A stretch of DNA of 64,000 bases from an uncultured delta proteobacterium. Its GTDB lineage: Bacteria > Desulfobacterota > Syntrophia > Syntrophales > UBA2185. The notes below the pieces were generated by a model. It was not told where the DNA came from and did no database searches. It saw nothing but the letters and a program-made list of their open reading frames with translations. The position numbers were made by a program, and so were the translations under genes. This document shows positions 26,626 to 40,338 of the stretch, piece after piece (position 1 is the first letter of the stretch; each line of letters starts with the position of its first letter). Location of the stretch: positions 320,001 to 384,000 of the forward strand of contig CAVOID010000003.1 of assembly GCA_963695875.1 (NCBI GenBank). Direction: 5' to 3'.

Positions 26626-28268
26626 ATGCGAATACAAAATCACATGATACAGTTTATTTTGCTTTTTATTCTTATTCTGGGTTCAGCAGGCGACGGTTTT
26701 GCCTATAATTCTAATCAGGCCATGGAAGAGGCGGATACATATCTCGAAAAGTGGGCAATATCTTGAAGCTGTGAAAGCCTATCAAGATATTTCAGACCTT
26801 TCCCCCGATCCTGAAATGAAAGCAGGCGCTGAACTCAAGATGGGAGATATTTACGGAGAGTTTCTGAAAAATCGTGCCCGGGCACTGGAAAAGTATACCG
26901 TCGTGATAAAGAAATACGGGAATAGCAAACATGCCGCGAATGCCTACTTTAATTCTGGAATGATCCTGTATGAGAAAGGCCGTTACAAAGAGGCCCTGAA
27001 TCAATTCAAAACATACATCAAGAGATATCCCAGTGAGTATCGAAGAGAGGCTGCGGAATTTATGATGGAAATATGTTCTAAGCCTCCTGCCGCAATAAAA
27101 GAAAAAAAGCCAGCCCTTAAAACAGCAAAAGATGGAATTATCAGGGTCTTAATTATGGCTGGTGTCCGGGAGATACGTGTGGACTCGCCTGCGTTATTTG
27201 AAGTAAGAGACGGCGATGAGAGAAGAAATCCTGATCAAGGTTCGAGCAGCTACCATAGACATTTCGGGAGGAATTATAAAGCTTAATGATAGTGAAATAT
27301 CGCACGAAAGGCTGGTTATCATTCCGTCTGATAGTAATATGCTGAGTTTAGGGAATGATTCATTCAGAGGTAAATTTAAGCTCCGTAGGGGTGTCGATGA
27401 TAGGCTGGTTGTTGTTCCGTCCAATGACAACGATCCAAATTTGAAAGGCAATCCTTACAGGGGTAAAATCAGGCTCCAAAGGAGTGCCATTGGCGGCATG
27501 GATGTGATTAATGTCCTGGATGTGGAAGCGTATCTTTACGGTGTCGTCCCAAAGGAGATGTCCCCTCAATGGCATACGGAGGCATTGAAGGCCCAGGCAA
27601 TTGCAGCGAGAACATATGCCCTCGATCAGAAGGAAAAAAACAAAGACAGAGACTATGACATTATCGCCGATACGACATTCCAGGTCTATGGAGGTGCGGG
27701 AGCAGAATCGGGGAGATCCAACCAAGCTGTGGACGAGACAAAAGGAATGGTACTCTTCTATGACGGTCAACTGGCACTTACTTATTTTCATGCGAACAGT
27801 GGTGGAATGACGGAAGATGCGAAACGTGTGTGGAGCACTGATATCCCCTATCTTAAGATGGTTCGCGATGTTTATAGTATAAAGGCCCCGAATTGTTCGT
27901 GGACACTGTCACTTAGTGTCGATAAAATCAGAAAGGCCCTAAGTAGTAAGGGCCTTGAGATTGGATTAATCGAAAGGCTTGTTCCCGTTGAAGTTAGCCC
28001 TTCCGGCAGGGTAATGAAGATCAAGATATTCCATGGTGGAAAGGAGGCCATACTAAACGGCAATGACTTCAGGAGTAAAATTGATCCCACGTTGATCAAG
28101 AGCACTTTATTTACAATAGTCAAACAAGGGGATGAAATCCGATTGGAGGGAAGGGGATATGGCCATGGTGTCGGTATGAGCCAGTGGGGTGCTAACATTA
28201 TGGCCGGCGAAGGATATTCGTACGATGATATCCTAAAACATTACTATCGAGGAGTGGAAATAAGGTGA
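26626..28268 (+). CDS. SpoIID/LytB domain protein with N-terminal TPR-like region
   Basis: YLYGVVPKEM, EALKAQAIAARTYA, QVYGG, GYGHGVGMSQWGA; two apparent frameshifts. Confidence 0.9.
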
Positions 28269-28355
28269 CTCGTTGACTTTAATTTTCATTGATCATAGTT
28301 GTAATGGATTTACCCTTCATATCTTATGAAGTATTAAGTTATGCAGTTGATGACA

Positions 28356-29039
28356 CTACTGGCTGATTTCTGAATATATTTTTTCTATCGCTTCTATAAT
28401 GTTGCCTGATTGCATGATTGGCCTGCCGATAGCTATGAAGTCCGTTTCCATTCTGACCGCTTCCTTTAAAGATGAAATTTTAACTTGATCATGTCTGTCC
28501 TGATACCATGCAGGTCTTATTCCTGAGCAGATCTTTTTTAACGGGTTATCCTGGAGATAATTTAAATCTTTGACGGAGCAGAAGATATATTCATAATTAT
28601 TCATTAGGGCGATATTTGAGAAGGCCTTCACAATGTCATCTGCAGTTCTTTCATAGATCCATTTCACTTCTAAGTCGGTGAAGGAAGTAAGTATCGTTAC
28701 ACCTGCAAGATGTTTTAAAAGGCCGGCATTCTTAGGCCTAAAGTTCGATGAACAGTGGATTGTAACAATATCTGCACCTGCATCAGTCAGTTTACTGATA
28801 CCGTTTTCCATTGTGGAAGGGATGTCATGAAGCTTCACATCAGCCATAACATTAAGTTTGTAATCAGTCCTGAGACGTGAGATGATCTTTATGACATCTC
28901 CGCTGTATAACATATCACTGACCTTAACTCCCCATATCATGCCATTTCCCATGGCTTTTGAAAGACTGCTGAATACTCCCTTTTCTTCAGCATCTTGAAA
29001 GCTTAATCCATCCACCGCCACAATGATTTTCGGAACCAT
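28356..29039 (-). CDS. pyrF: Orotidine 5'-phosphate decarboxylase family protein
   Basis: IIVAVD, DVKLHDIPST catalytic motif, GVTILTS, GIRP, IGRPI. Confidence 0.8.
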   Translation of the reverse strand: MVPKIIVAVDGLSFQDAEEKGVFSSLSKAMGNGMIWGVKVSDMLYSGDVIKIISRLRTDYKLNVMADVKLHDIPSTMENGISKLTDAGADIVTIHCSSNFRPKNAGLLKHLAGVTILTSFTDLEVKWIYERTADDIVKAFSNIALMNNYEYIFCSVKDLNYLQDNPLKKICSGIRPAWYQDRHDQVKISSLKEAVRMETDFIAIGRPIMQSGNIIEAIEKIYSEISQ

Positions 29040-29153
29040 AATCTCCCCCTATTTGGTTTGAGGAATTATAAGCATTAACAACCTTCGAGCAATTTCAGGT
29101 CTTGTATATGTATCGGTACGTTTAAGTATTGTCTTTAATTTCATAATTTATTG

Positions 29154-29182
29154 TTGACATAGAAGTATGCTTTACCTATAAT
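29154..29182 (+). promoter_or_regulatory. Perfect consensus sigma70 promoter with no nearby downstream gene
   Basis: TTGACA-17 bp-TATAAT; next credible start codon at 29908. Confidence 0.8.
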
Positions 29183-29907
29183 CCACTCGCAAAATACTTG
29201 TAAAGACCATGTATTCAAATACATAATGTTGCCCATGTTAAATTCGACTTATGCATAAATAAATTAATAACAGTATAAATCTGGCGTTCTTGAAAACACT
29301 GTAAAATCTCTTTATTCGTAAAAATCTTTTACTCTTGATACATATTTTTAAATTAATAAAAAATAACATAAAAGATTAAACGGAGGTCACTTTTTCACTA
29401 AATTCAAAAGATAAACGGCGCCAGTTCTTCTGGATTCAGATTCCACCATACAAGGAGCTGGGCGCGCTACTTGTCAACCTTCAGAGGTATTGGTGAGTCC
29501 CTCTGCAAGGGAATCATGCTGACTCCCTCCAGAATCCTTCCGATCCCAGGATCGGTCATCTCGGTTGTAAGGGGCAGAGTAATGAGGCGCAGGTTTTGGA
29601 AACATAAAGTCATAGAGGATCGAAAGTTTAGACACAGAGCATTGAATATGATCACCTATGTAAAGTTGTAATCCAAGCAAATTTAATGTCAAAGTATGCA
29701 GGATACTTGATGCCTCATAAAATAAGTTGCGACTGACCGCTTTTGGGGATTAAAGATAATAATTAAATAAGCCGATAAAAATTAAGGTATTTCTATGTTT
29801 TTTTCACTGAATGTTTCAGGCAGTTAATGTTTAATGCCTCTTTAGCTTATTGATGTAGCGGGGGCATTAGGTCATCTTTATTGAAGATGATGCCGGGGAG
29901 TCTGAAA

Positions 29908-30867
29908 ATGAAGAACATAAAATTGGTTGTGAGAAATGATTCAATATCAGAAAATATTGAAGAACTGAAGGAAGAGTCACAGATTTGGCCAATGGTTGGT
30001 TTGTCTGTAGGTAGTTTTATTCAATTAATTTCAATGGATCAGCAAACCTGTATCTTGGAAGTTTATCATAGTATAAATAAAAAGGGGACTTTTTATTTTA
30101 TTGAGGGTTCACTTTATAATGCTATTTGCGGTGAGCTTGAAGGTGAAGAAGCCGCCATGGAAATGATTTCCTGGGAGAAGGTTAGAATTAATATTAATAA
30201 TAATTTGAACACAAATGATGTTGCAAGGAAGATACACAAGGGGCTTATGTCTCTTTTGATGGAGAGTTCGAGGCGCAAGGATGAATCAGAATGGGACCGT
30301 AATCTTAAAGGGTCAGGGAAGATTGCTGAAAGAGATAAAAATGATCCCGATACCATGGCCATACTGGATGATAAGGAAAAGATTAGTGCTCAGGACAGCT
30401 TCAAAATGAAGTTGGATGAAAGTGTGGAAATCTGTAAGAGGGATATGGGGAATGCGCTAATTTCAGTGAGCGTGATATCAATGACTAATGGAAAGTCTTT
30501 AGGGGGCTATAATTCAAGTCCAGAAACAGTAATTCTCTTTAACGAGATTACGAATTTTATAAAGAAAATATTAGAGAAAAGTTCGTCCGAAACACTGGGA
30601 AGGTATTACATTGTGGATCTTCTAAAAGATAACCAAATGCTTTTTTCTCTGCTTTGCGGCAAATACGAATACCAGTTGGGCATAGTATTTGATAGCACTG
30701 AAATTCAGCTTGGTCTTTTCTTGAATGTCATTATACCAAAAATTACCAAAGTTTTTGAAGATGCAGTGTTCATACTAGGTCATGGAAGTAGTTCAGGCAA
30801 GGGATCCATAGAAGGAGCTTTTATTAGCATGCAGGGGGATTTAAATGGCCATGAATTTCGTGTGTAA
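29908..30867 (+). CDS. DUF4388 (PATAN-like) domain plus C-terminal roadblock-like domain
   Basis: GLSVGSFIQLISMDQQTCILEV...GTFYFIEG...GEEAAMEMISW...LLMESSRRKDE; C-terminal domain paralogous to the next gene. Confidence 0.75.
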   Translation: MKNIKLVVRNDSISENIEELKEESQIWPMVGLSVGSFIQLISMDQQTCILEVYHSINKKGTFYFIEGSLYNAICGELEGEEAAMEMISWEKVRININNNLNTNDVARKIHKGLMSLLMESSRRKDESEWDRNLKGSGKIAERDKNDPDTMAILDDKEKISAQDSFKMKLDESVEICKRDMGNALISVSVISMTNGKSLGGYNSSPETVILFNEITNFIKKILEKSSSETLGRYYIVDLLKDNQMLFSLLCGKYEYQLGIVFDSTEIQLGLFLNVIIPKITKVFEDAVFILGHGSSSGKGSIEGAFISMQGDLNGHEFRV

Positions 30868-31037
30868 TATTAAACTTATTTAATGACATGCGCAAAGCAA
30901 CTCAGGTTTCTTAACGCTTTTTATAATTCTGTCATAATCGGGAAGGATAAAAGAGTAATGAAGGGGGGGAGGATAAATTGGAGAAGGTTTGACATATGTT
31001 TTAAGGATGATAAAACAAAACGAAAAGGAGGAAGAAG

Positions 31038-31413
31038 GTGAACATACAGAAATTAAATGATTGTCTGGAGAACTTGAAAACGAGATTTAGGAGAGGGACT
31101 TATTGCATCTAGTATAATTTCAATGGCTGATTTTCAGACATTAGTGGCAACGGAGAAGTCGAGCCCTGTTGCTGCTTCTCTCTTTGGTGAGATTACGAAT
31201 TTTATACAGACTTCACTTGCTAAGGGACCCTATCCGCAGATTGGGAAATTTTATTACTTGGATCTTGTTGGGAATAAGGGGCTTATCTTTATTCCGCTTG
31301 GTGACTACCAGTGGGGGATATCGATTGACACTAAGAAGTGCAAACTCGGGCTTCTCCTGAATATTATTTTACCTACAATGATTACTAACTTTGAAGAGGC
31401 GGTCACATCTTAA
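31038..31413 (+). CDS. Stand-alone roadblock-like protein, paralog of the previous C-terminal domain
   Basis: AGGAGG RBS plus GTG 31038, frameshift near 31080; shares LFxEITNFI, GxxYxxDL, YQxGI, LGLxLNxIxP. Confidence 0.7.
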
Positions 31414-31431
31414 TGACCTAAGGAGGTAGCA

Positions 31432-31614
31432 ATGGGAGAGAAATTGGTACGTATATTTGAGATTGTTACAGAGCAGGCAGGTTTTAAAGGAAGGTTGGAA
31501 CTCGCTACTAAGGCGGGTATGACTATGGCTCAAGCAGCGGAGATGAAGGATACAGAAGAACTTGTAAAAAAATTGAAGGCTGCGGCAAGCGATATAATCG
31601 ATAAAGGATTATAA
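31432..31614 (+). CDS. Small helical hypothetical protein (60 aa)
   Basis: AAGGAGGT RBS; starts 18 bp after the previous gene. Confidence 0.8.
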   Translation: MGEKLVRIFEIVTEQAGFKGRLELATKAGMTMAQAAEMKDTEELVKKLKAAASDIIDKGL

Positions 31615-32036
31615 TAGAGCCTTATAGTTAAGAAAGGTCTGAAATTAAGTATAGGTGTGTTCCCCGGGACACAACCCAGGTCTTAAGCTCCAGTGATCTT
31701 GGGGAATTATACCTAAGATGGATGTGACATAATTAAGGCATGTTTTTCCTCATGTTTTTCCCATATCCTGTCTCTTGCCGCTTTATGTGTTGCAGACAGG
31801 TAGGAAGAGCCAGTAACGTATTGAGTAATAATGCTGGTTTTGTAAAAGCTAAGAGGTACGGTGTGCCAACATTAAAGATTGTGGCATGAATATCCGCCGC
31901 GTAGCTTGTCTACAGACTGGCATTGGGTAGGGTGAAGGTGCAAAGCATCAGGAGCCTTCCACTGGCAATATTTGTCACTACAGGCGCGAAGAACAGGGTT
32001 ACTATTCACGTATCACCATTGGGTAGCAAATAGAAT

Positions 32037-32441
32037 ATGAATTTAGCACTGGGTGGGGAACAACTCGACAAGATATATGATACCATGAAGTCGAGCCTGA
32101 TCGAGATTGGTGTCGAGACTGTGCTATTACTTGATACGGCTGGAAATGTGATTACATCAGTTGATGATGGTAGTGACAGGCATGATGTTTATTCGTTGGC
32201 GGCTCTCGCTGCTGCTAATTTTAGTGCAATGCGCAGTATGGCAAAAATTGCGGGAGAAGAAGAGTTCTCGCTTTTATTTCATAGAGGACAAAAGGAAAAT
32301 ATCTATTTAAGCGCAGTAAGCGATGATTTTTTATTATTCGTAATTTTCAATAATGAAATGCCTTTGGGGCTCCTAAGGCTAAAAGTTGCAAAGGTTATCG
32401 GGGAGTTGCTCGGTGTATTAATCACTGATTCCTCTCCGTAA
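32037..32441 (+). CDS. mglB: Roadblock/LC7 protein, MglB-like, without the C-terminal tail
   Basis: LLLDTAGNVI, SLAALAAANF, EFSLLFHRG, LGLLRL; directly upstream of mglA. Confidence 0.85.
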   Translation: MNLALGGEQLDKIYDTMKSSLIEIGVETVLLLDTAGNVITSVDDGSDRHDVYSLAALAAANFSAMRSMAKIAGEEEFSLLFHRGQKENIYLSAVSDDFLLFVIFNNEMPLGLLRLKVAKVIGELLGVLITDSSP

Positions 32442-32512
32442 GCATGTATACAGCGCTCTTAGACTTTAAATGGATTTAATGAAAATGTTCTGGTTAGGAG
32501 GAGGGATACGAT

Positions 32513-33118
32513 TTGGCGTTTATAAATCTGAAAGATAAGCTGATACAGGCCAAAATAGTATACTACGGTCCCGGCAAAGGTGGTAAGACAACAAATTTGG
32601 AGTACATTTACAACAAGTGTCGAGAGCAGATAAATTCTAAAATGGTTACTATAAAGACAGAAGGTGACCGGACATTATTTTTTGATTTTTTCCCTTTTGA
32701 TATAGGTAAAATAGAAGGGTATGACGTAAAAATACAGTTATATACGGTACCGGGGCAGGTGAAGTATAATTCGACGAGACGTTTGGTATTGAAGGGCGTT
32801 GACGGTATTGTGTTTGTTGCGGATTCTGCAGAGGAACGAAGAAATGCGAATATCCTCTCTCTAAAAAATTTACAAGAAAATCTGACCCTTTATAAAAAGA
32901 ACGTATTTGAAATACCCTTGATAATGCAATACAATAAAAGAGATATTGCAAAGGAGGGGATTCCTATTTTGGATTTAGAAACAATGGAGAAAGACCTCAA
33001 TGACGATTTAAAAGTGCCGTCCTTCGAAGCTAGTGCTCTGAAAGGTGATAATGTTATTCTGACCCTTAAGAAAATAATATCGGCAACGATGGCTTCTCTG
33101 GAAAAGGAACTGAAATAG
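32513..33118 (+). CDS. mglA: MglA small Ras-like GTPase
   Basis: KIVYYGPGKGGKTTNL, DRTLFFDF, LYTVPGQV, NKRD. Confidence 0.95.
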   Translation: MAFINLKDKLIQAKIVYYGPGKGGKTTNLEYIYNKCREQINSKMVTIKTEGDRTLFFDFFPFDIGKIEGYDVKIQLYTVPGQVKYNSTRRLVLKGVDGIVFVADSAEERRNANILSLKNLQENLTLYKKNVFEIPLIMQYNKRDIAKEGIPILDLETMEKDLNDDLKVPSFEASALKGDNVILTLKKIISATMASLEKELK

Positions 33119-33129
33119 GAGCGTGGAAA

Positions 33130-34813
33130 ATGGAAATAAATAAAGAATCCCCATTCATTCGCGGTATAGAAAACCGCCTTGATGCAATTTTCGAATCAGA
33201 CAAGAATCAACCTGACCAAGCAGAGGCTGATATACGTAATCTTAAAGAAGATGATCCTCTGAAAGAAGTGACCAATCGAGCGCGATGTCTCTGATACGTC
33301 TCAAGTCGCTGGCAAAAAAGATTTTAAAGTAGATGAAGCGATAGACTCAACCCAATCCTCATTTCTACGCGGCATAGAAAACCGCCTCGATGCAATTTTC
33401 GAATCAGACGACAAGCGACCTGATCAAGCAGCGGCTGATATTCGTAATCTTAAAGAAGATGATCCTCTGGAAGAGGTGGTCATCGAGCGCGACGTCTCTG
33501 ATACGTCTCAGAGTCGCTGGCAAAAAAGATTCCAAAGTCGATGAAGCGATAGACTCAGCCCAGTCCTCATTTCTACGCGGCATAGAAAACCGCCTCGATG
33601 CTATTTTCGAATCAGATGACAAGCAGACCTGATCAAGCAGCGGCTGATATACGTAATCTTAAAGAAGATGATCCTCTGAAAGAGGTGGTCATCGAGCGCG
33701 ACGTCTCTGGAGTTGACTCAAGCCGATGGCAAAAAAGATTTTAAAGTCGATGAAGCAATAGACTCAACCCCATCTCAATTGCTACAAGGAATAGATAGCC
33801 GTCTTGATGCCATTTTTGGGGCAGAAATTTCAGGGATGCATCATCTTGAAGAAGATGATGCTCTTAAGGAGGTAACCATAGAAACTGATGTTTCTGATAT
33901 GCTTCAGGACGATGAAAAAAGATTTCAAAATTGATGAGAATGTAGGCATGACCGAAAAACCCTCTTCTGGTCGTGAAAAAGAAAACCATCTTATCTTAGG
34001 GGATAGTAATATGCCTGATCATACAGAAGAAGCCGGTATTCATAATATTCCAGGGCCAGAAATTCCGAAAAAGGCTGTAGCAGAAACTGAATTGTCAAGT
34101 GAAAGGGATGACAAGGTGGAGCGCTTCGAACAACTATTCGAAGAATTAGTTACTTCCACTTCAATATGGTATTCACCTCTAAAAGACCTGAAAAGTACAG
34201 TTCTTTCGATTGAATGGGAATTGACTGATGAAAGCATGGAGAAATTCGATAAAGAGGTTAATAAATTAATTAACTTATTTGCGGAAGATAACATTGTTCT
34301 TGGCTTTCTCAGATCCTTCGCTTCTTGGGGAGATATATAAAGGCAAAGGGTATTGAAGCCCATTATGTTTCTATAAAATTACTTCTTTCCGTATATGATG
34401 ATCTTGAAAGAGTGTTATTAACCAAGGAGATGACGGAAGACAAAAAAACATGCAGTCCTGCTCGGAAATATTGGAAAATATAGAGAATGGGTGGAAACGG
34501 TGGACCTTACAGTACGCGAGGAAGATAAATGGGCAGGAGAAGAAATACCCTCAGAGGCTGCGAGAACAGACGATTCCTGATAGGCATGAGGAGGATGTCA
34601 TTACTGAGCCGATCATCGTATCAAAGATGACAGGAGAGAACCATGGAAGAAACTATACGTCCATCCAAAGATGAAGTATCGTCTTTAGACCCCATCTCCG
34701 GAATGACGCCGCATGAGGCTTTTGCTTATGCTTTGGATGAAATAAAAAAAGTAATCAGTGCTGAATTCAGTGCACTGAAGGCAGAATTAAAATTGTGGAG
34801 ACAGGGGCAATAA
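33130..34813 (+). CDS. Acidic scaffold-like protein with four 69-aa N-terminal repeats, several apparent frameshifts
   Basis: AGGAG RBS, ATG 33130; repeats, then SPLKDLKSTVLSIEWELTDE domain and EFSALKAELKLWRQGQ* end. Confidence 0.7.
33145..33935 (+). repeat. Tandem repeat, about 207 bp x 4
   Basis: GCGGYATAGAAAACCGCCTYGATGC at 33161, 33369, 33577 and a diverged copy at 33786 (spacings 208, 208, 209). Confidence 0.95.
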
Positions 34814-34935
34814 ATATGGCTAAGACCATATTTGAATTTTGCTGTCGCCACAAGGTATGGTTTCTCATTACTGAGATAAACAGTATCTAACTTTTTTAAT
34901 ATAAGGCTCAGTATATTGTATATGGAGCGGTGGAC

Positions 34936-35103
34936 ATGATTATATTTTGTGAAGAATGCGGAGAAAGATATATAATAGAACGCGATGAAATCAAAGAGAA
35001 GGTGATCACGTTCAATTGCAGGGTTTGCATGGACCCCATAAAGGTTTTATTACCGGACGCCGCAGTTATGAATCAGGCAGGTAGCGAGGGAACCAGGAAC
35101 TGA
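34936..35103 (+). CDS. Stand-alone zinc-ribbon protein (55 aa), absent from the ORF track
   Basis: GGAG RBS; MIIFCEECGERY...FNCRVCMDPI. Confidence 0.8.
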   Translation: MIIFCEECGERYIIERDEIKEKVITFNCRVCMDPIKVLLPDAAVMNQAGSEGTRN

Positions 35104-35184
35104 CTGAATAGCCCATACTCATATTCAAATTCGTCAAAATGGTAGATTGAAAATACCGATATCTCGAAGATATAAGGCGACGAT

Positions 35185-36513
35185 ATGGCCATTAAAGATA
35201 AATCATTAGATCTGTTTCATGAAAAGCAAGAGCTGGACATTTATCTGTCAAGTTTAAAGACCATCCATCAGCCTGATGACGTTGCGCAGCAGAAAGACGT
35301 GGATTCTGTGGAGGCGGAAATGCGTTCGCCGGTAATCGATCAGGATAAATCATTAAATTTGATCTATGAAAAGGAAGAGACGGAGATTTTTCTGTCAAGT
35401 ATAACAACCGTACGACCTCCTGATGAAATTATGCAGGAGAAAGCTACAGTTTCTGCGGAGACGGACGAAAAGTTGCCGGTATCCGATCATTTATCCGCGT
35501 ATAAAGAGCCGGAGATACAGATTCTGTCTGATGAAGAGGCCCGACCCGCTAAAGGCTGGATGGGGGAAAATTGTAATTGCTTCACGGTCAAAAGAAGATA
35601 TGCAAATATCCGTTGCTTTACTGAAAGAAGAAAAAGCGGCTAAGAATAGTTTATCTGATATGGAGGACACGAACGAAGAGCAGCCTCAAACAGGCGACCA
35701 AAATATAACGGATGAAGCTATGGTTGTGAAGGGGCTGCCTGGTTTTGTTCAGACGAAGGAAGTTGCCGTACAGATGTCAGATGCTGTAGCTATACCGCAA
35801 TCTGATGAGATCGGAAATGCAGAACATAACGTTGTCCTGAAATCCCAACAGCAGACTGAAATTGTACCGGAAACACCCAGTGTGAAAAAGGATGAAAAAC
35901 TGAAAAAGCTAACACCTGAACCTTCAAGAAAGAAAAGCAAACAAGTTTCTTGGGGCGCCAGTATGCGTTTGTTTGCCCTCTTCCTGGTATTTATTGTCGT
36001 GATTGAGGGTTATTTGTGGATGTATCCTGATGTGGGGTATCAAACAATTGAATGGATGCATTCTAATTTCCCCATGATGGATCAGCTTTTAGGGATTGAG
36101 AAGTCAGCAGCGGGATATCATTACTGATCAGGTCGAATTCATCAATGTGAGACAGCGATTTGTAAAGAATGAATCGTTGGGAAACCTCAGGGTCATAGAA
36201 GGGGAAGTGTGTAAATCGAGCAGATTTTCCCATTGCGAAAATAAAGGTCATGGGAGAGCTGTTTGATTCTAGCGAGGCATTGCTGGCTGCACGGATATCT
36301 TACTGCGGCAATGTTCTCCCGGATGAAACACTTGGTAGGCTCAAGGAAGAAGAAATTCGCTCGGTCCTATCTATTTCGTCTGGTGGCAACTTATCTAACA
36401 ACAAAATATTGCCCAAGGGTCAGTTACCGTTTATGATTGTGTTTACACGCGAACCAACAGGTGTCGCTAAAGCTACCGTTACAGCCGTGGGGGCTGAAAG
36501 AATCTCACCATAA
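35185..36513 (+). CDS. Membrane-anchored DUF3426-like protein, apparent frameshifts
   Basis: Acidic N-region, TM LFALFLVFIVVIEGYLW, C-terminal SYCGNVL...LPFMIVF. Confidence 0.65.
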
Positions 36514-36558
36514 ACCTGTTTATAATATATAATCGTATTCGCCTGAGCAGGGTGGAAA

Positions 36559-38997
36559 TTATTTTATACATGCCCTGAAAACCTGCTTTAAATCAGTAAG
36601 ACCTATTATAGCTTTTGATATACCATCCTGCAGCAGTGTTCTCATTCCTTCGGAAATGGCATTCTCCCTTATGGTTTCAATAGTCGCACGTTTGAGAATT
36701 AGTCTTTTGTTTGCATCTGTATTGATGAGAAGCTCATGAATACCCATCCTGCCTTTATACCCTGAGTTTTCACAACTATCACAGCCCTTGGAGCGGTAAA
36801 GGTTAAGGTTCTTTGCGCCTGGTACATTCAGTTTATCAAATAATTTTTTCCCATAAACGCGAACTATTTCTTTATATTCTTCATCCGTGGGGTGATAAGC
36901 CTCCTTACATTTCTTGCAGAGAGTCTTCACCAACCTCTGCGCCAGAATGCCCAGCAGAGAATCTGAAAAGTTAAATGGATCAATTCCCATATCAAGAAGC
37001 CTGGTAACCGTTTCAGGTGCGCTATTCGTATGTAAGGTACTGTAGACAAGATGACCGGTCAGTGACGCTTCAACCGCGATTTTGGCTGTTTCGTAATCCC
37101 TCATTTCGCCGACCATGATAACATCCGGGTCCGACCTAAGGAAGGATCGCATTGCAGCAGCAAAGTCAAATCCAATTTTAGAGTGCACCTGAACCTGTCG
37201 AAGTCCGCGCTGGGTAATCTCAATGGGGTCCTCTGCCGTCCATATTTTCCTGTCCGGCGTATTGATATAGCGCAAGGCCGCATGAAGCATCGTTGTTTTG
37301 CCGGATCCTGTTGGTCCGACCACAAGGATTATCCCGTATGGTTTTTCGCAGAGCTTCAGCAGTTCTTTATAATTCCTTTTGGTCAATCCCTGGGCTTCCA
37401 GGGGTATTAACTTCCCCGCCGTCAGTATACGCATCACCACATCTTCGAGATTCTCCTGGGTTGGCACAGTGGCTACGCGAAGTTCAATTGCCTTCCCGTC
37501 CGGGCGCTTCATTCTAATCTTGCCATCCTGTGGTATCCTCCGGACTGTTATATCGAGGGCCGACATGATTTTGATTCTGGAGACCAGAGCTGCCCTGAAA
37601 CTGTAAGGTACAGTCATGTGGGGAATGCAGGTGCCGTCAATCCTATAACGGATCCCTACGTTTCCTGCATCTGCGTCGGGTTCAATATGAATATCTGAAG
37701 CACCTTTTTCAAACGCCTCATTTATAATCTTATTCACAAGCTGAATGACTTCGTTGTCCGATTCTTTGAGGAATGCTTCCTTAATAGCAGCCTGCCTGGC
37801 CACACCGAGAGATTCCGTGATGACCTTACTTTCAAGCTCATGAGCAATCTGATCCGCCTCATCGGTCGGCTCCGCCTCAGTCACAAGCTGCATCATCTCT
37901 TCTTCTGAATCCATGATGGCTGCTGCGCCATCAACTATGATTTCATCAGTGTCATCTTTCGCCGAAATTTCAATATCATCCGGTTCAGCAACTTCGGGCT
38001 CGTATGAATGATTTACAAATCTTATAATGTCTTCAGGCAGGGCGACATCGTATTTTACCTTATCCGTATTTAAAGTGCTTTCAATGAGTTCCCGTTTCCG
38101 TAAGTCATGAGGATCTTCAACAATAACGTGGATGTATCCTCCAATTTCCTCAAAAGGGATCCAAAGGTTACGGAGAAGGTGACTTTTTTCGAGTTTTCCT
38201 AATAGATAATCGGGAATTGTGATTCTGCGATTGAACTGAATAAATCTGCATTTATAATATATTTCAAGAGACTTGCGCATGTCATCTCTCGAAATATTAT
38301 ATTTTCTCATCAGAATGACTTCAAGGGCTTCCTTCTTGGCCATTGCTTCGCTTCTGGCTTCTTCCAATTCCTCTTCATTGATTAAGTCATGACTGATGAG
38401 GTATCCGAATTTTGTCTCTTTCTTTTTTTGCGGTTCCTTTTTCTGTTGCTTATGAAGAGCGGCACCTAGAGATTCCGAAATTTCGTGAAGCATGACGGGT
38501 TCTTCCTCGGCGAAGACGCCCAAAGGTTCTTTCTTATTTAGTATCTGGATGACACCCATTAACTCCCCGCTGTATATAATAGGCACAGCCATGACCTGCT
38601 TCGTTCGAAATCCCGTTTTTTTGTCGATTACGGCATCAAATGTCAGCTCTTTGTCAATGCTTTTCAGTTCTTCTTTATTGTAGACATCGGCAATGGTGAC
38701 GGAATTTCTTGTAGCAGCGACATAACCTGGTATACTTTGTTTGTCGATAGGCAATCTTATTTCTTCTAACTTATTCCCTTCAGGAATAATGGTGTAAATA
38801 TCTTTTTTTGTCTGGTCTGCACCGAATATGTTAACCGATTCGACTTTGAAAAGATCCATAATATGATCTTTAGTATCCATTAAAATCTGGTTCAGGTTAT
38901 CTGACGCATTAATTGTCTCTGTGATATCCTGTAACAGCTCTTGTACGCGCTGGAATTCTTGAAGTTCAGCAATTTCATCAAACTCATTGACGTCCAT
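36559..38997 (-). CDS. GAF-domain PilB/GspE-family ATPase
   Basis: GAF (DKKTGFRTKQVMAVPI...IQILNK), ASDIHIEP, PQDG, GPTGSGKTT, EDPIE, GEMRD, STLHTN, CxxC pairs; GGAG RBS before ATG 38997. Confidence 0.9.
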   Translation of the reverse strand: MDVNEFDEIAELQEFQRVQELLQDITETINASDNLNQILMDTKDHIMDLFKVESVNIFGADQTKKDIYTIIPEGNKLEEIRLPIDKQSIPGYVAATRNSVTIADVYNKEELKSIDKELTFDAVIDKKTGFRTKQVMAVPIIYSGELMGVIQILNKKEPLGVFAEEEPVMLHEISESLGAALHKQQKKEPQKKKETKFGYLISHDLINEEELEEARSEAMAKKEALEVILMRKYNISRDDMRKSLEIYYKCRFIQFNRRITIPDYLLGKLEKSHLLRNLWIPFEEIGGYIHVIVEDPHDLRKRELIESTLNTDKVKYDVALPEDIIRFVNHSYEPEVAEPDDIEISAKDDTDEIIVDGAAAIMDSEEEMMQLVTEAEPTDEADQIAHELESKVITESLGVARQAAIKEAFLKESDNEVIQLVNKIINEAFEKGASDIHIEPDADAGNVGIRYRIDGTCIPHMTVPYSFRAALVSRIKIMSALDITVRRIPQDGKIRMKRPDGKAIELRVATVPTQENLEDVVMRILTAGKLIPLEAQGLTKRNYKELLKLCEKPYGIILVVGPTGSGKTTMLHAALRYINTPDRKIWTAEDPIEITQRGLRQVQVHSKIGFDFAAAMRSFLRSDPDVIMVGEMRDYETAKIAVEASLTGHLVYSTLHTNSAPETVTRLLDMGIDPFNFSDSLLGILAQRLVKTLCKKCKEAYHPTDEEYKEIVRVYGKKLFDKLNVPGAKNLNLYRSKGCDSCENSGYKGRMGIHELLINTDANKRLILKRATIETIRENAISEGMRTLLQDGISKAIIGLTDLKQVFRACIK

Positions 38998-39015
38998 TCT
39001 ATTACTCCACTTATC

Positions 39016-39125
39016 TTGATCGCAAGAGCAGCCGGCAAGCCCCGCCTTGCATGCGGGCTGAAGGGGTCCAATGCAACGAATAGTTCTCATACCGAGAAGC
39101 CCATCCTTGCAGGCTGTTAGTTTCG
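39016..39125 (-). repeat. Degenerate copy of miniature element family B
   Basis: Reverse complement CATTGGACCCCTTCAGCCCGCATGCAAGGCGGGGCTTGCCGG aligns with CATTGCACCCCTTATCCCCGCCTACAGGGCGGGGCTTGCGGG. Confidence 0.75.
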
Positions 39126-39192
39126 CTTCATAAAAATGTTATAAAATTAAAAAAATAAATAACGTGATTTAATCTTTATTGGGCTTTCCAAT

Positions 39193-39296
39193 AAAAAACC
39201 GCCAAGCAAAACCCTGTGGTCACACTTGGCGGCTTGGCTATCTATGATGAGAACCATAGCTTTCATATACCACAAATGTGGTTTAGCTTTTCAAGC
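39193..39296 (-). promoter_or_regulatory. c-di-GMP-I (GEMM-I)-like riboswitch with overlapping terminator
   Basis: Minus strand CTTGAAAAGCTAAACC...GAAAGCTATGGTTCT...AGATAGCCAAGCCGCCAAG; terminator CCGCCAAG/CTTGGCGG-TTTTTT. Confidence 0.65.
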
Positions 39297-39390
39297 TTAT
39301 GCTTTTATTATACAAGACAGCGTTCGAAGTCAAGATTTTTTATGAGCAAAGAGTTAGGAGCAGCGGTGAATGCTCTCTCGGGAAGTTAAC

Positions 39391-40338
39391 CTACTTTGTA
39401 TTCCTGCTCTTTAACTCTCGGTACCAGTCTATTGTTTTTTTCAACCCATCTCGAAGGGTCGTCTTCGCCGTGAATCCAAATTCCTGAAAGGCTCTCGTCG
39501 TATCCAGCATCCTGCGTGGCTGTCCGTCAGGTTTATCTTTATCCCAAATGATCTGACCCTGAAACTCAGTCAGTTCAGTGATCAATTCAACGAGGTCTTT
39601 AATTGATATTTCGGATCCAGCTCCAATATTAACAGGTTCATTCTTATTGTAGGATTCTGTTGCTAAAACAATGGCCTCAGCAGCATCTTCCACATAGATG
39701 AATTCGCGTGTAGCCCGCCCGCTTCCCCAGACCACGACCTCCTTCTCGTTCTTCAATTTTGCGTCAACGCACTTCTTTATGAGCGAAGGAATAACGTGGG
39801 AGGATCGAGGATCGAAATTATCGCAGGGTCCGTACAGATTGACGGGAATTAGAAAGATAGAGTTGAAGCCATACTGCTGGCGATAGGCCTGAGATTGCAC
39901 AAGCATCATTTTTTTTGCAAGACCATAAGGCGCGTTTGTTTCTTCAGGATAGCCGTTCCATAGATCATCCTCCCTGAAGGGAACCGGGGTGAATTTCGGA
40001 TAGGCACAGACAGTACCTATAGCTACAAATTTCTCAATGTTCCTCAGGTACCCTTCATGGATGAGCTGAGCGCCCATGATCAGGTTTGCATAAAACAGGG
40101 TTGCGGGATTTTCCCCGTTATAACCGATGCCTCCCACTCGGGCGGCCAAATGTATGATGATATCCGGTTTCCTGTCAGAGTACATCCGCCTTATGTCAGC
40201 CAAATCTGTCAGGTCATAATCAGATGAATTTATAGCATCTATGTGATCATACCCGCGCTCTCTGAGCTTCTTAACCAAGTGATGACCCAGGAAGCCCTTG
40301 CCGCCGGTGACGGTTATTCTCTTATTCTTTGATAGCAT
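39391..40338 (-). CDS. fcl: GDP-L-fucose synthase
   Basis: [37 protein letters not shown]. Confidence 0.95.

Follow-up and report, generated by a model that had tools for sequence, protein, structure and literature searches.

A widespread protein family encoded after mglA carries a candidate counterpart of the MglB C-terminal helix beside tail-less MglB

Background

If MglB, the partner of the Ras-like GTPase MglA, lacks the C-terminal helix known from Myxococcus xanthus, from where could such a helix be supplied? This question is raised by a locus at positions 32,037 to 34,813 of a 64,000-nucleotide stretch of DNA (contig CAVOID010000003.1, positions 320,001 to 384,000; here called the window) from an uncultured delta proteobacterium of the Syntrophales, in which a short mglB and mglA are followed by a gene for a protein with four copies of a helix-like motif. 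We call this protein and its homologs X.

In M. xanthus, MglB has a core (residues 10-131) and a C-terminal helix (Ct-helix, residues 147-157; PMC6785124), and this helix and the surface acting as GTPase-activating protein (GAP) share one polypeptide and are separable by engineering only. Exchange activity resides in the helix by itself, and the authors suggest that it could work in trans in an engineered construct (PMC11016934). Its role is disputed, however: the helix is regarded as a factor that promotes exchange allosterically (PMC6785124, PMC11016934) or, alternatively, as a clamp in an MglB that is neither GAP nor GEF (guanine nucleotide exchange factor) (bioRxiv 10.1101/2024.10.31.621274).

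An initial annotation of the window, made from the sequence alone, had proposed that the helix is supplied in trans by the protein encoded after mglA. This proposal is supported computationally by a profile-profile match, a mutually exclusive distribution and a model of the complex in which the motif occupies the published MglA pocket, and we consider it probable that X supplies an MglA-binding helix in trans, that MglB is a roadblock-only GAP, and that X serves as a tether for MglA, perhaps accelerating its nucleotide exchange as well.

Results and discussion

MglB and MglA of the window

The mglB gene (32037-32441, + strand) encodes a protein of 134 amino acids (aa) consisting of a roadblock domain alone (Robl_LC7, E-value = 7.4e-13), and is followed on the same strand by mglA, which begins at 32513. 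As the initial annotation had stated, this MglB (ending in ..LRLKVAKVIGELLGVLITDSSP) stops soon after the roadblock core, with about five residues beyond it, and the alignment with M. xanthus MglB (6h5b_B, E-value = 1.2e-17) agrees: residues 22-127 of the query lie on residues 25-129 of the 160 of the chain, and thus the window protein lacks an equivalent of some 24-30 residues of the Myxococcus tail. The aspartate/glutamate-rich helix within a C-terminal extension of more than 15 residues, by which Ct-helix-bearing MglB is recognized in PMC6785124, is therefore lacking. The same end was found in all five relatives having MglB (open reading frames (ORFs) of 134, 134, 139 and 143 aa, and a match in genome G012), so that the short end is no indel artefact and the absence of the tail is real. 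The window MglB also matches the MglB chains of Thermus thermophilus (E-value = 1.9e-10 to 1.3e-09), and its score with the NCBIfam MglB model, 64.9 bits, is under the cut-off of 200. As a bare roadblock domain it is like both the T. thermophilus-type MglB, from which the helix motif is absent (bioRxiv 10.1101/2024.10.31.621274), and the M. xanthus MglB truncated of its Ct-helix. The window operon differs from that of Thermus in having a separate protein with a helix-like motif, none being reported for Thermus in the cited excerpts.

The mglA gene (32513-33118, + strand) encodes 201 aa, of which residues 1-198 align with M. xanthus MglA (6hjh_A, E-value = 1.3e-53). The protein is recognized as an MglA by its close similarity to this solved structure and by the segments GDRTLFFDF (with the intrinsic Arg53) and LYTVPGQV (with Thr78 of the G3 motif and the intrinsic Gln82), both kept in this alignment. 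Of the residues lining the helix pocket of M. xanthus MglA, I64, I67 and K186 (equivalent to M. xanthus K181) are retained, and M. xanthus K185 is replaced by S190. The order mglB then mglA is common to all related loci.

The motif of X and the tail of MglB

The X gene (33130-34813, + strand) starts with an ATG at 33130, 11 nucleotides past the TAG of mglA, and encodes four motif units joined by acidic linkers, which are followed by a bundle of helices and then by a C-terminal helix. The initial annotation had described four 69-aa motif repeats at the beginning of this gene, and all four copies were found as quoted, each on the + strand: ESPFIRGIENRLDAIFES at 33145-33198 (protein residues 6-23), SSFLRGIENRLDAIFES at both 33356-33406 and 33564-33614, and SQLLQGIDSRLDAIFGA at 33773-33823. 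The copies are each in their own reading frame, with spacings of 208, 208 and 209 nucleotides that correspond to 69 codons plus indels, and Tandem Repeats Finder recognizes the region (33146-33816, + strand) as a repeat with a period of 208 (207 plus an indel), 3.2 copies, 88% matches and a score of 998.

For comparison, 80 Myxococcus-type mglBA loci were fetched by a pattern derived from the M. xanthus MglA sequence. In these, 77 of 78 MglB proteins carry a tail of 28-38 residues ending in ..[IL]D.[LI]F, with the consensus ..SPFAEITD[DE]DIDNLF[SN][DE]. The MglB proteins of Cystobacter fuscus (locus L095) and Corallococcus (L145) end in GSPFAEISDDDIDNLFSE, which fits the residues Asp150-152, Asp154 and Phe157 printed for M. 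xanthus in PMC6785124; the M. xanthus tail quoted in the initial annotation is thus confirmed in close relatives among the Myxococcaceae.

The X motif has the family consensus S-[SP]-F-h-x-[GE]-[VI]-E-x-R-L-D-x-[LI]-F-x-[ED]-[ED]. An hhalign comparison of 150 X N-termini with 73 MglB tails matched the two over 18 ungapped columns (probability 91.1, P = 1e-6, score 20.6), a score that was reached by none of 200 column shuffles of the tail alignment (mean 6.4, standard deviation 1.6, maximum 15.2), and the reversed alignment scored 8.0. In this register, the motif and the tail have in common S, P or S, and F at the start (-14 to -12 relative to the final Phe), an acidic residue at -7, and, spanning -4 to 0, the block [IL]-D-x-[LI]-F with a further acidic residue behind it; F(+5), L(+4), D(+2) and L(+1) of X correspond to F157, L156, D154 and I153 of M. 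xanthus. The X motif is therefore like the M. xanthus Ct-helix (147-157, PDB 6IZW; PMC6785124, PMC11016934) in length, helicity and register, and is likewise encoded in an mglBA operon. It shows the sequence pattern of the Ct-helix by the profile-profile match, HMM-to-sequence searches (HMM, hidden Markov model) alone not being significant, and its location is different: it lies N-terminally and within internal repeats in X, a separate protein with one to five copies, and not at the C-terminus of MglB, where the Ct-helix is tethered by a flexible linker. Because it sits on another protein, it cannot clamp MglB onto MglA.

The MglB tails of some loci are 8-9 of 17 residues identical to the X consensus without gaps, in metagenome-assembled genomes (MAGs) labelled Fibrobacteraceae or Krumholzibacteriia; that of locus L107, ..TFTRGVEAEIDNLFAE, has nine. 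Among the MglB tails we also noticed a second type, ..F[TS]..VE[AS]EID[NS]LF[VA][DE], in MAGs labelled Fibrobacteraceae, Krumholzibacteriia and Eisenbacteria, which resembles the X motif more closely than does the Myxococcus tail, and a third type, ..ELTEADIESLFK, in MAGs labelled Deferrimicrobium (L088, L107, L124, L129, L131, L134, L139, L140, L146 and L147 for the two types together). A search for MglB proteins longer than the query (MglB2 of L058) returned two matches, neither of them with an X domain. Neither a fusion of MglB with X nor any other sign that a gene was literally split turned up among these sequences, which we take as weak evidence against a fused form. An MglB homolog of 289 aa (P0255) has an N-terminal extension of 150 residues that looks helical.

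Distribution of the tail and of X

The distribution of the tail and of X was compared over 214 mglBA loci. A C-terminal extension occurs in none of the X-linked MglB proteins examined, from both the loci of close relatives and those of Desulfobulbales. Conversely, the X profile has no hit in the 80 Myxococcus-type loci, in which about 950 nucleotides downstream of mglA are visible, and none in five whole Myxococcus-type genomes; in the positive control, five X-clade genomes yielded a single gene apiece. Tail and X are thus mutually exclusive across these loci, but this amounts to one phylogenetic contrast: in the MglA tree, the 117 X-linked and 75 Myxococcus-type sequences are separated by a single bipartition (support 0.999).

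In 50 of the 54 loci whose MglA is 61-97% identical to that of the window, the gene immediately 3' of mglA, or else of a second mglB, is X. Three of the four loci without X are contig ends; the fourth, L067, is considered below. The C-terminal half of X, used as a word-indexed query, retrieved 154 proteins, nearly all labelled hypothetical and from MAGs of Syntrophales, Syntrophaceae and Smithellaceae, and an exhaustive profile search yielded 873 clusters at E-value ≤ 1e-3 and 732 at ≤ 1e-10. No family of Pfam or NCBIfam was matched by four X orthologs or by the long forms described below, and in the ESM Atlas nothing was found beyond 'hypothetical protein' clusters of Thermodesulfobacteriota. 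The window protein shows all the traits by which we recognize the family, namely an N-terminal motif of the RLDxLF type, a bundle opening with SP[LI]..LK..[VI]LS[IL][DE]WE, and a position directly after mglA.

Long forms of X (700-1300 aa, with two or three copies of the bundle) exist in Desulfobulbales. In a set of 80 loci, kept of 366 matched and fetched by X itself, 78 have mglA directly upstream of X and 76 contain MglB; cultured carriers include Desulfofustis glycolicus DSM 9705 (L194) and Desulfopila aestuarii DSM 18488 (L213). X is hence a conserved third component of the tail-less-mglB/mglA operon in Thermodesulfobacteriota (Syntrophales, Desulfobulbales and related MAGs), where it is the third gene in 130 of 134 loci. 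The long forms (L193-L272, e.g., L194:6001-9318) also have a repeated ALQGVDVETEADDDSDEE.LP element and an N-terminal ..DDDLT..VDLFEF... Another arrangement, mglB1-mglA-mglB2-X', was seen in MAGs labelled Desulfobacteraceae (L053-L060); both mglB paralogs are tail-less there, and X' has 270-292 aa and starts with ..EVDSRLDDFFGDE.

In the library of papers searched, none joining MglA with Desulfobulb* was found; papers on MglA and Syntroph* contain, judged by title, none on a tail-less-mglB/mglA/X module, and those on the MglA-MglB helix module deal by title with Myxococcus or eukaryotic systems and none with X. A survey of MglA neighborhoods from 2014 names, in the excerpts cited, only PATAN for groups 1 and 5, and its supplementary table S2 may list neighbors.

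Architecture of X and its modeled complex with MglA

An AlphaFold2 model of X was made on the ortholog P0002 with 91 aligned members. It contains motif helices at residues 8-21 (predicted local distance difference test score (pLDDT) about 84) and 70-83 (about 74) with disordered linkers between them, a confident helical bundle at 200-315 (pLDDT 93-98), and a C-terminal helix at 366-397 (pLDDT about 90). X thus comprises an amphipathic, acidic N-terminal helix of 15-18 residues, a disordered acidic linker, an all-helical bundle and a long C-terminal helix. In the window, the bundle conserved in the family is encoded at 34119-34508 (+ strand; ERFEQLF..SPLKDLKSTVLSIEWE..), its core being the part that matches the 873 clusters, and the C-terminal helix, an invariant block of the alignment, at 34703-34810 (+ strand; MTPHEAFAYALDEIKKVISAEFSALKAELKLWRQGQ).

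The core of X superposes on the CheA P1 domain 1i5n_A (Z = 12.3 over 120 residues, root mean square deviation 5.1), a Z value that is common for helical bundles, and Foldseek matches the bundle to 3kyi_A with an E-value of 0.12. Histidine phosphotransfer (HPt) domains are bundles of four or five helices with a conserved phospho-accepting His; in X, no histidine is found among the columns conserved at ≥90% in the 91 members, and there is no Pfam Hpt hit. The fold likeness, weak and shared by CheA P1 and designed repeat proteins, was not accepted as a family assignment.

To see where the motif would be placed on MglA, ESMFold2 was used to fold MglA together with residues 1-45 of X, each with a 32-row alignment. 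The ipSAE values were 0.76, 0.77 and 0.77, and the best of three controls had 0.00; the mark set for this tool, which the pair passed, is one that 58 of 80 solved complexes and two of 110 mismatched pairs attain. At least 57% of the contacts were common to the runs, and the pLDDT of the partner was at least 55. The confidently modeled interface consists of MglA residues 35-36, 39, 64-65, 67-68, 70 and 72 (the β2-β3 loop) and 182-197 (α5), and on the side of X of motif residues 7-24. In this model, K186 contacts F21 (the equivalent of M. xanthus F157) and D18, and I67 contacts F9, G12, I13 and R16. In M. xanthus, the helix pocket is formed by α5, β2 and the β2-β3 loop, with the contacts K181-F157 and K185-D154 and with L64 and I67 nearby (PMC6785124). 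The model thus supports placement of the X motif on the same pocket as the M. xanthus MglB helix, including the equivalent of the F157/K181 contact.

The MglA of the X clade differs systematically from the Myxococcus type at several positions of this pocket, namely 71 (D versus K or R), 187 (K versus A), 66 (K or Q versus E or D) and 183. These pocket changes could go along with the Asp-to-Arg change in the X motif. Co-variation of MglA and motif within the short-form clade (Y190 with FLQGVE, S190 with FVREVE or FIRGIE) was dropped as evidence, since the pattern tracks clades.

Motif copies and frameshifts

The short forms of X have the motif consensus ..SSFLQGVESRLDSLFAED.., with one copy at residues of about 6-22 in nearly all of 123 members. 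Two or more copies were found in 24 X proteins, up to five units in number, and none of these 24 falls outside the 29 closest relatives of the window; a few distant X clusters bear two copies independently. One N-terminal copy is therefore the norm of the family and ancestral, and the four copies of the window represent a local, genus-level amplification of the motif-plus-linker unit. The linkers between the units, about 50 residues long and disordered, drift, and the motif residues are kept in each copy.

In the window, X is read in ten pieces because of nine one-base frameshifts relative to an intact ortholog of 551 aa with four motif copies (P0001). Three further orthologs are likewise intact (484 and 475 aa with three copies each, and 399 aa with two), and the four together come from two genera. 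The initial annotation had called for polishing of the indels. Short-read contigs from four runs, which represent related strains and not the source sample (the best run has at most 0.30 of the sampled words of the window), contain a compensating one-base indel at seven of the nine junctions (33277, 33710, 33914, 34311, 34439, 34564 and 34629/30). The remaining two, at about 33511 and about 33625, lie inside the repeat, and contig cover is nearly nil across 33390-33710. One-base indels are frequent across the window assembly (e.g., at 31123, 33277-34630, 35165 and 35400-35640), which is 82.6% complete in 16 contigs, and frameshifts also occur in the DUF3426 gene at 35185-36513 and in the gene at 31123. 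The nine frameshifts of X are specific to the window assembly. Since such indels break several genes here, gene calls in the window are best read through relatives.

Neighboring genes

Upstream of mglB, a PATAN (DUF4388) protein is encoded at 29881-30867 (+ strand; DUF4388, E-value = 2.9e-10), which is conserved in this position in relatives and whose C-terminal part resembles the product of the next gene. Two small conserved genes follow at 31123-31614 (+ strand), coding for a protein that has 124 aa in relatives and for one of 60 aa, without a Pfam hit. The 5' part of the former gene is lost to an indel in the window, and its product looks roadblock-like by eye. All three upstream genes are kept in both genera.

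Downstream of X, the next gene of the operon (34936-35103, + strand) codes for a small zinc-ribbon protein conserved in relatives (Zn_ribbon_4, E-value = 5.6e-05, below the Pfam cut-off), and the last one (35185-36513, + strand), frameshifted in the window, codes for a DUF3426 membrane protein with intact orthologs of 441 and 442 aa (E-value = 1.1e-09 and 6.5e-10). A terminator-like site follows at 36538-36556; in the promoter and terminator scan as a whole, counts were no higher than in shuffles, and Rfam gave no match in 28000-40000. In one cluster, P0224, an X-like N-terminus is joined to DUF3426. In M. xanthus, MglB is recruited by the zinc-finger domain of GltJ (PMC11135422). The zinc-ribbon and DUF3426 proteins may be a membrane anchor or partner of the module. 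The convergent gene at 36559-39090 (- strand) encodes an 842-aa PilB-like ATPase (GAF, MshEN and T2SSE domains) that is conserved beside the operon in relatives, and this neighbor apparently links the module to type IV pili.

Proposed mechanism and alternative explanations

We propose that the N-terminal helix of X is the counterpart of the Ct-helix of the Myxococcus-type MglB and would dock in the α5/β2-β3 pocket of MglA, distal from the nucleotide. For the MglB of this lineage, the roadblock surface would then be the sole means of action, making it a GAP from which MglA is set free once GTP is hydrolysed, as with the helix-less truncation of M. xanthus MglB, and allosteric tethering and nucleotide exchange would be carried by X; the exchange role is proposed because of the published work on the M. 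xanthus helix (PMC6785124, PMC11016934). X could bring MglA to whatever binds its bundle and C-terminal helix. With four motif units, one X could hold several MglA molecules, or one with higher avidity, and the linkers of about 50 residues make simultaneous binding sterically plausible. The 'GAP-only MglB' and the scaffold that 'binds up to four MglA' of the initial annotation are accordingly worded here as possibilities: the motif similarity, the distribution, the helicity and the modeled site are computed, and from them we infer MglA binding, an effect on exchange, a stoichiometry and a partner of the bundle.

Several observations weigh against this proposal. An HMM of the MglB tails run against 1187 ORFs of the X clade ranks the X N-termini first, at an E-value of about 1-3 that is not significant, and an HMM of the X motif run against 1831 ORFs of the Myxococcus type gave a single full-length tail match (E-value = 2.5). 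Such HMM-to-sequence searches, at E-values of about 1 or worse both ways, were dropped as evidence. The motif has an invariant Arg at the position of M. xanthus Asp152 and Gly or Glu at that of Ile148, MglA position 190 (equivalent to M. xanthus K185) is S or Y in the X clade versus K in the Myxococcus type, and the motif of the long forms in Desulfobulbales, ..VDLFEF.., lacks the Arg and is more divergent. Locus L067 has mglA and mglB2 without X within 3 kb downstream. Given the single bipartition of the MglA tree, the distribution of tail and X is one evolutionary contrast and not many. Moreover, a C-terminal extension is present in only 66 of 343 coupled MglB proteins and 277 are tail-less (S3 Table of PMC6785124). 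On these published counts, lacking the tail is the usual condition and no special loss, and X is consequently no universal companion of tail-less MglB or general substitute for the tail. As for the complex model, which had been suggested as a check with one repeat peptide and did place the interface at the published helix pocket, a structure with this helix bound in this pocket has already been solved (6IZW), and the high score may for that reason be recall; the model treats the motif as a look-alike of the Ct-helix, and its score may reflect likeness rather than binding.

An alternative explanation is that the resemblance is convergent, the X motif being an amphipathic acidic helix of a generic, LD-motif-like kind whose binding partner is not MglA but, for example, the bundle of X itself (in autoinhibition or self-assembly), MglB, the upstream PATAN and roadblock proteins, or the downstream zinc-ribbon and DUF3426 proteins. 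The sequence-to-profile searches at noise level would fit this, as would the weak Foldseek matches of the X bundle, which include the paxillin-LD-binding bundles of FAT and GIT1 and the vinculin tail. The pLDDT values of the motif helices (84 and 74) are fairly high for isolated helices and could reflect packing on a domain, and in P0224 an X-like N-terminus is combined with DUF3426. Against convergence, the profile-profile match extends ungapped over 18 columns and exceeds all of the shuffles, motif and MglB tail exclude each other in mglBA operons, and the complex model puts the motif on MglA with controls at 0.00. Binding to the X bundle and to MglA would, furthermore, not be exclusive, and we regard convergence as an unlikely explanation, although one of some weight.

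X might also bind MglA by its helix and yet be an effector, a polar landmark or a sequestering factor without any effect on exchange, in which case the idea of a GAP/GEF split would be wrong despite a common binding site. For a mere exchange peptide, the large conserved bundle and C-terminal helix would be superfluous, as would the two or three bundle copies of the long forms, and according to the excerpts of the 2024 preprint (bioRxiv 10.1101/2024.10.31.621274) the M. xanthus helix mainly stops MglA-GDP from leaving MglB and the GAP/GEF view is obsolete. On the other hand, the helix itself has been reported to drive GDP release allosterically through the pocket (PMC6785124, PMC11016934), and we give this explanation a low probability. 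A non-MglB protein of a polarity module is known in M. xanthus, where RomR/RomX, a proposed GEF or effector/partitioning complex, binds MglA, and the Glu-rich C-terminus of RomR aligns with the MglB helix (S7 Fig legend of PMC6785124). However, RomX binds MglA-GTP only (bioRxiv 10.1101/2024.10.31.621274), and X represents an unnamed fold family of its own. That X is a decaying pseudogene in the window strain, with repeats from meaningless slippage in a disordered region, is very improbable indeed: nine frameshifts within 1.7 kb and a repeat number of two to five among close relatives could suggest it, but the indels of neighboring genes in the same incomplete assembly, the corrections at seven of nine junctions, the intact ORFs in four relatives, and the conservation of motif residues beside drifting linkers all speak against decay.

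Implications

The helix and its pocket in MglA were already known; what is new is the proposed relocation of the helix to another protein, of a widespread family without annotation, its conserved position in the third gene of the operon, and its amplification. If helix supply in trans by X is true, a large clade (Syntrophales, Desulfobulbales and relatives) separates the helix and the GAP naturally, and would provide a system in which the action of the helix can be measured on its own. Going further, X could be a dedicated stand-alone allosteric regulator of MglA, with GAP and exchange split over two proteins across a phylum-level clade, the amplified X (two to five copies) a multivalent polar hub that clusters several MglA molecules, and the family a third core component, so far missed, of many Ras-like polarity modules in prokaryotes, a wider possibility that we offer tentatively and with some doubt. 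In any of these cases in which X binds MglA as proposed, the family would be a new, widespread partner of a bacterial Ras-like GTPase, and its members, with one to five copies of the helix, would form a natural series for testing multivalency.

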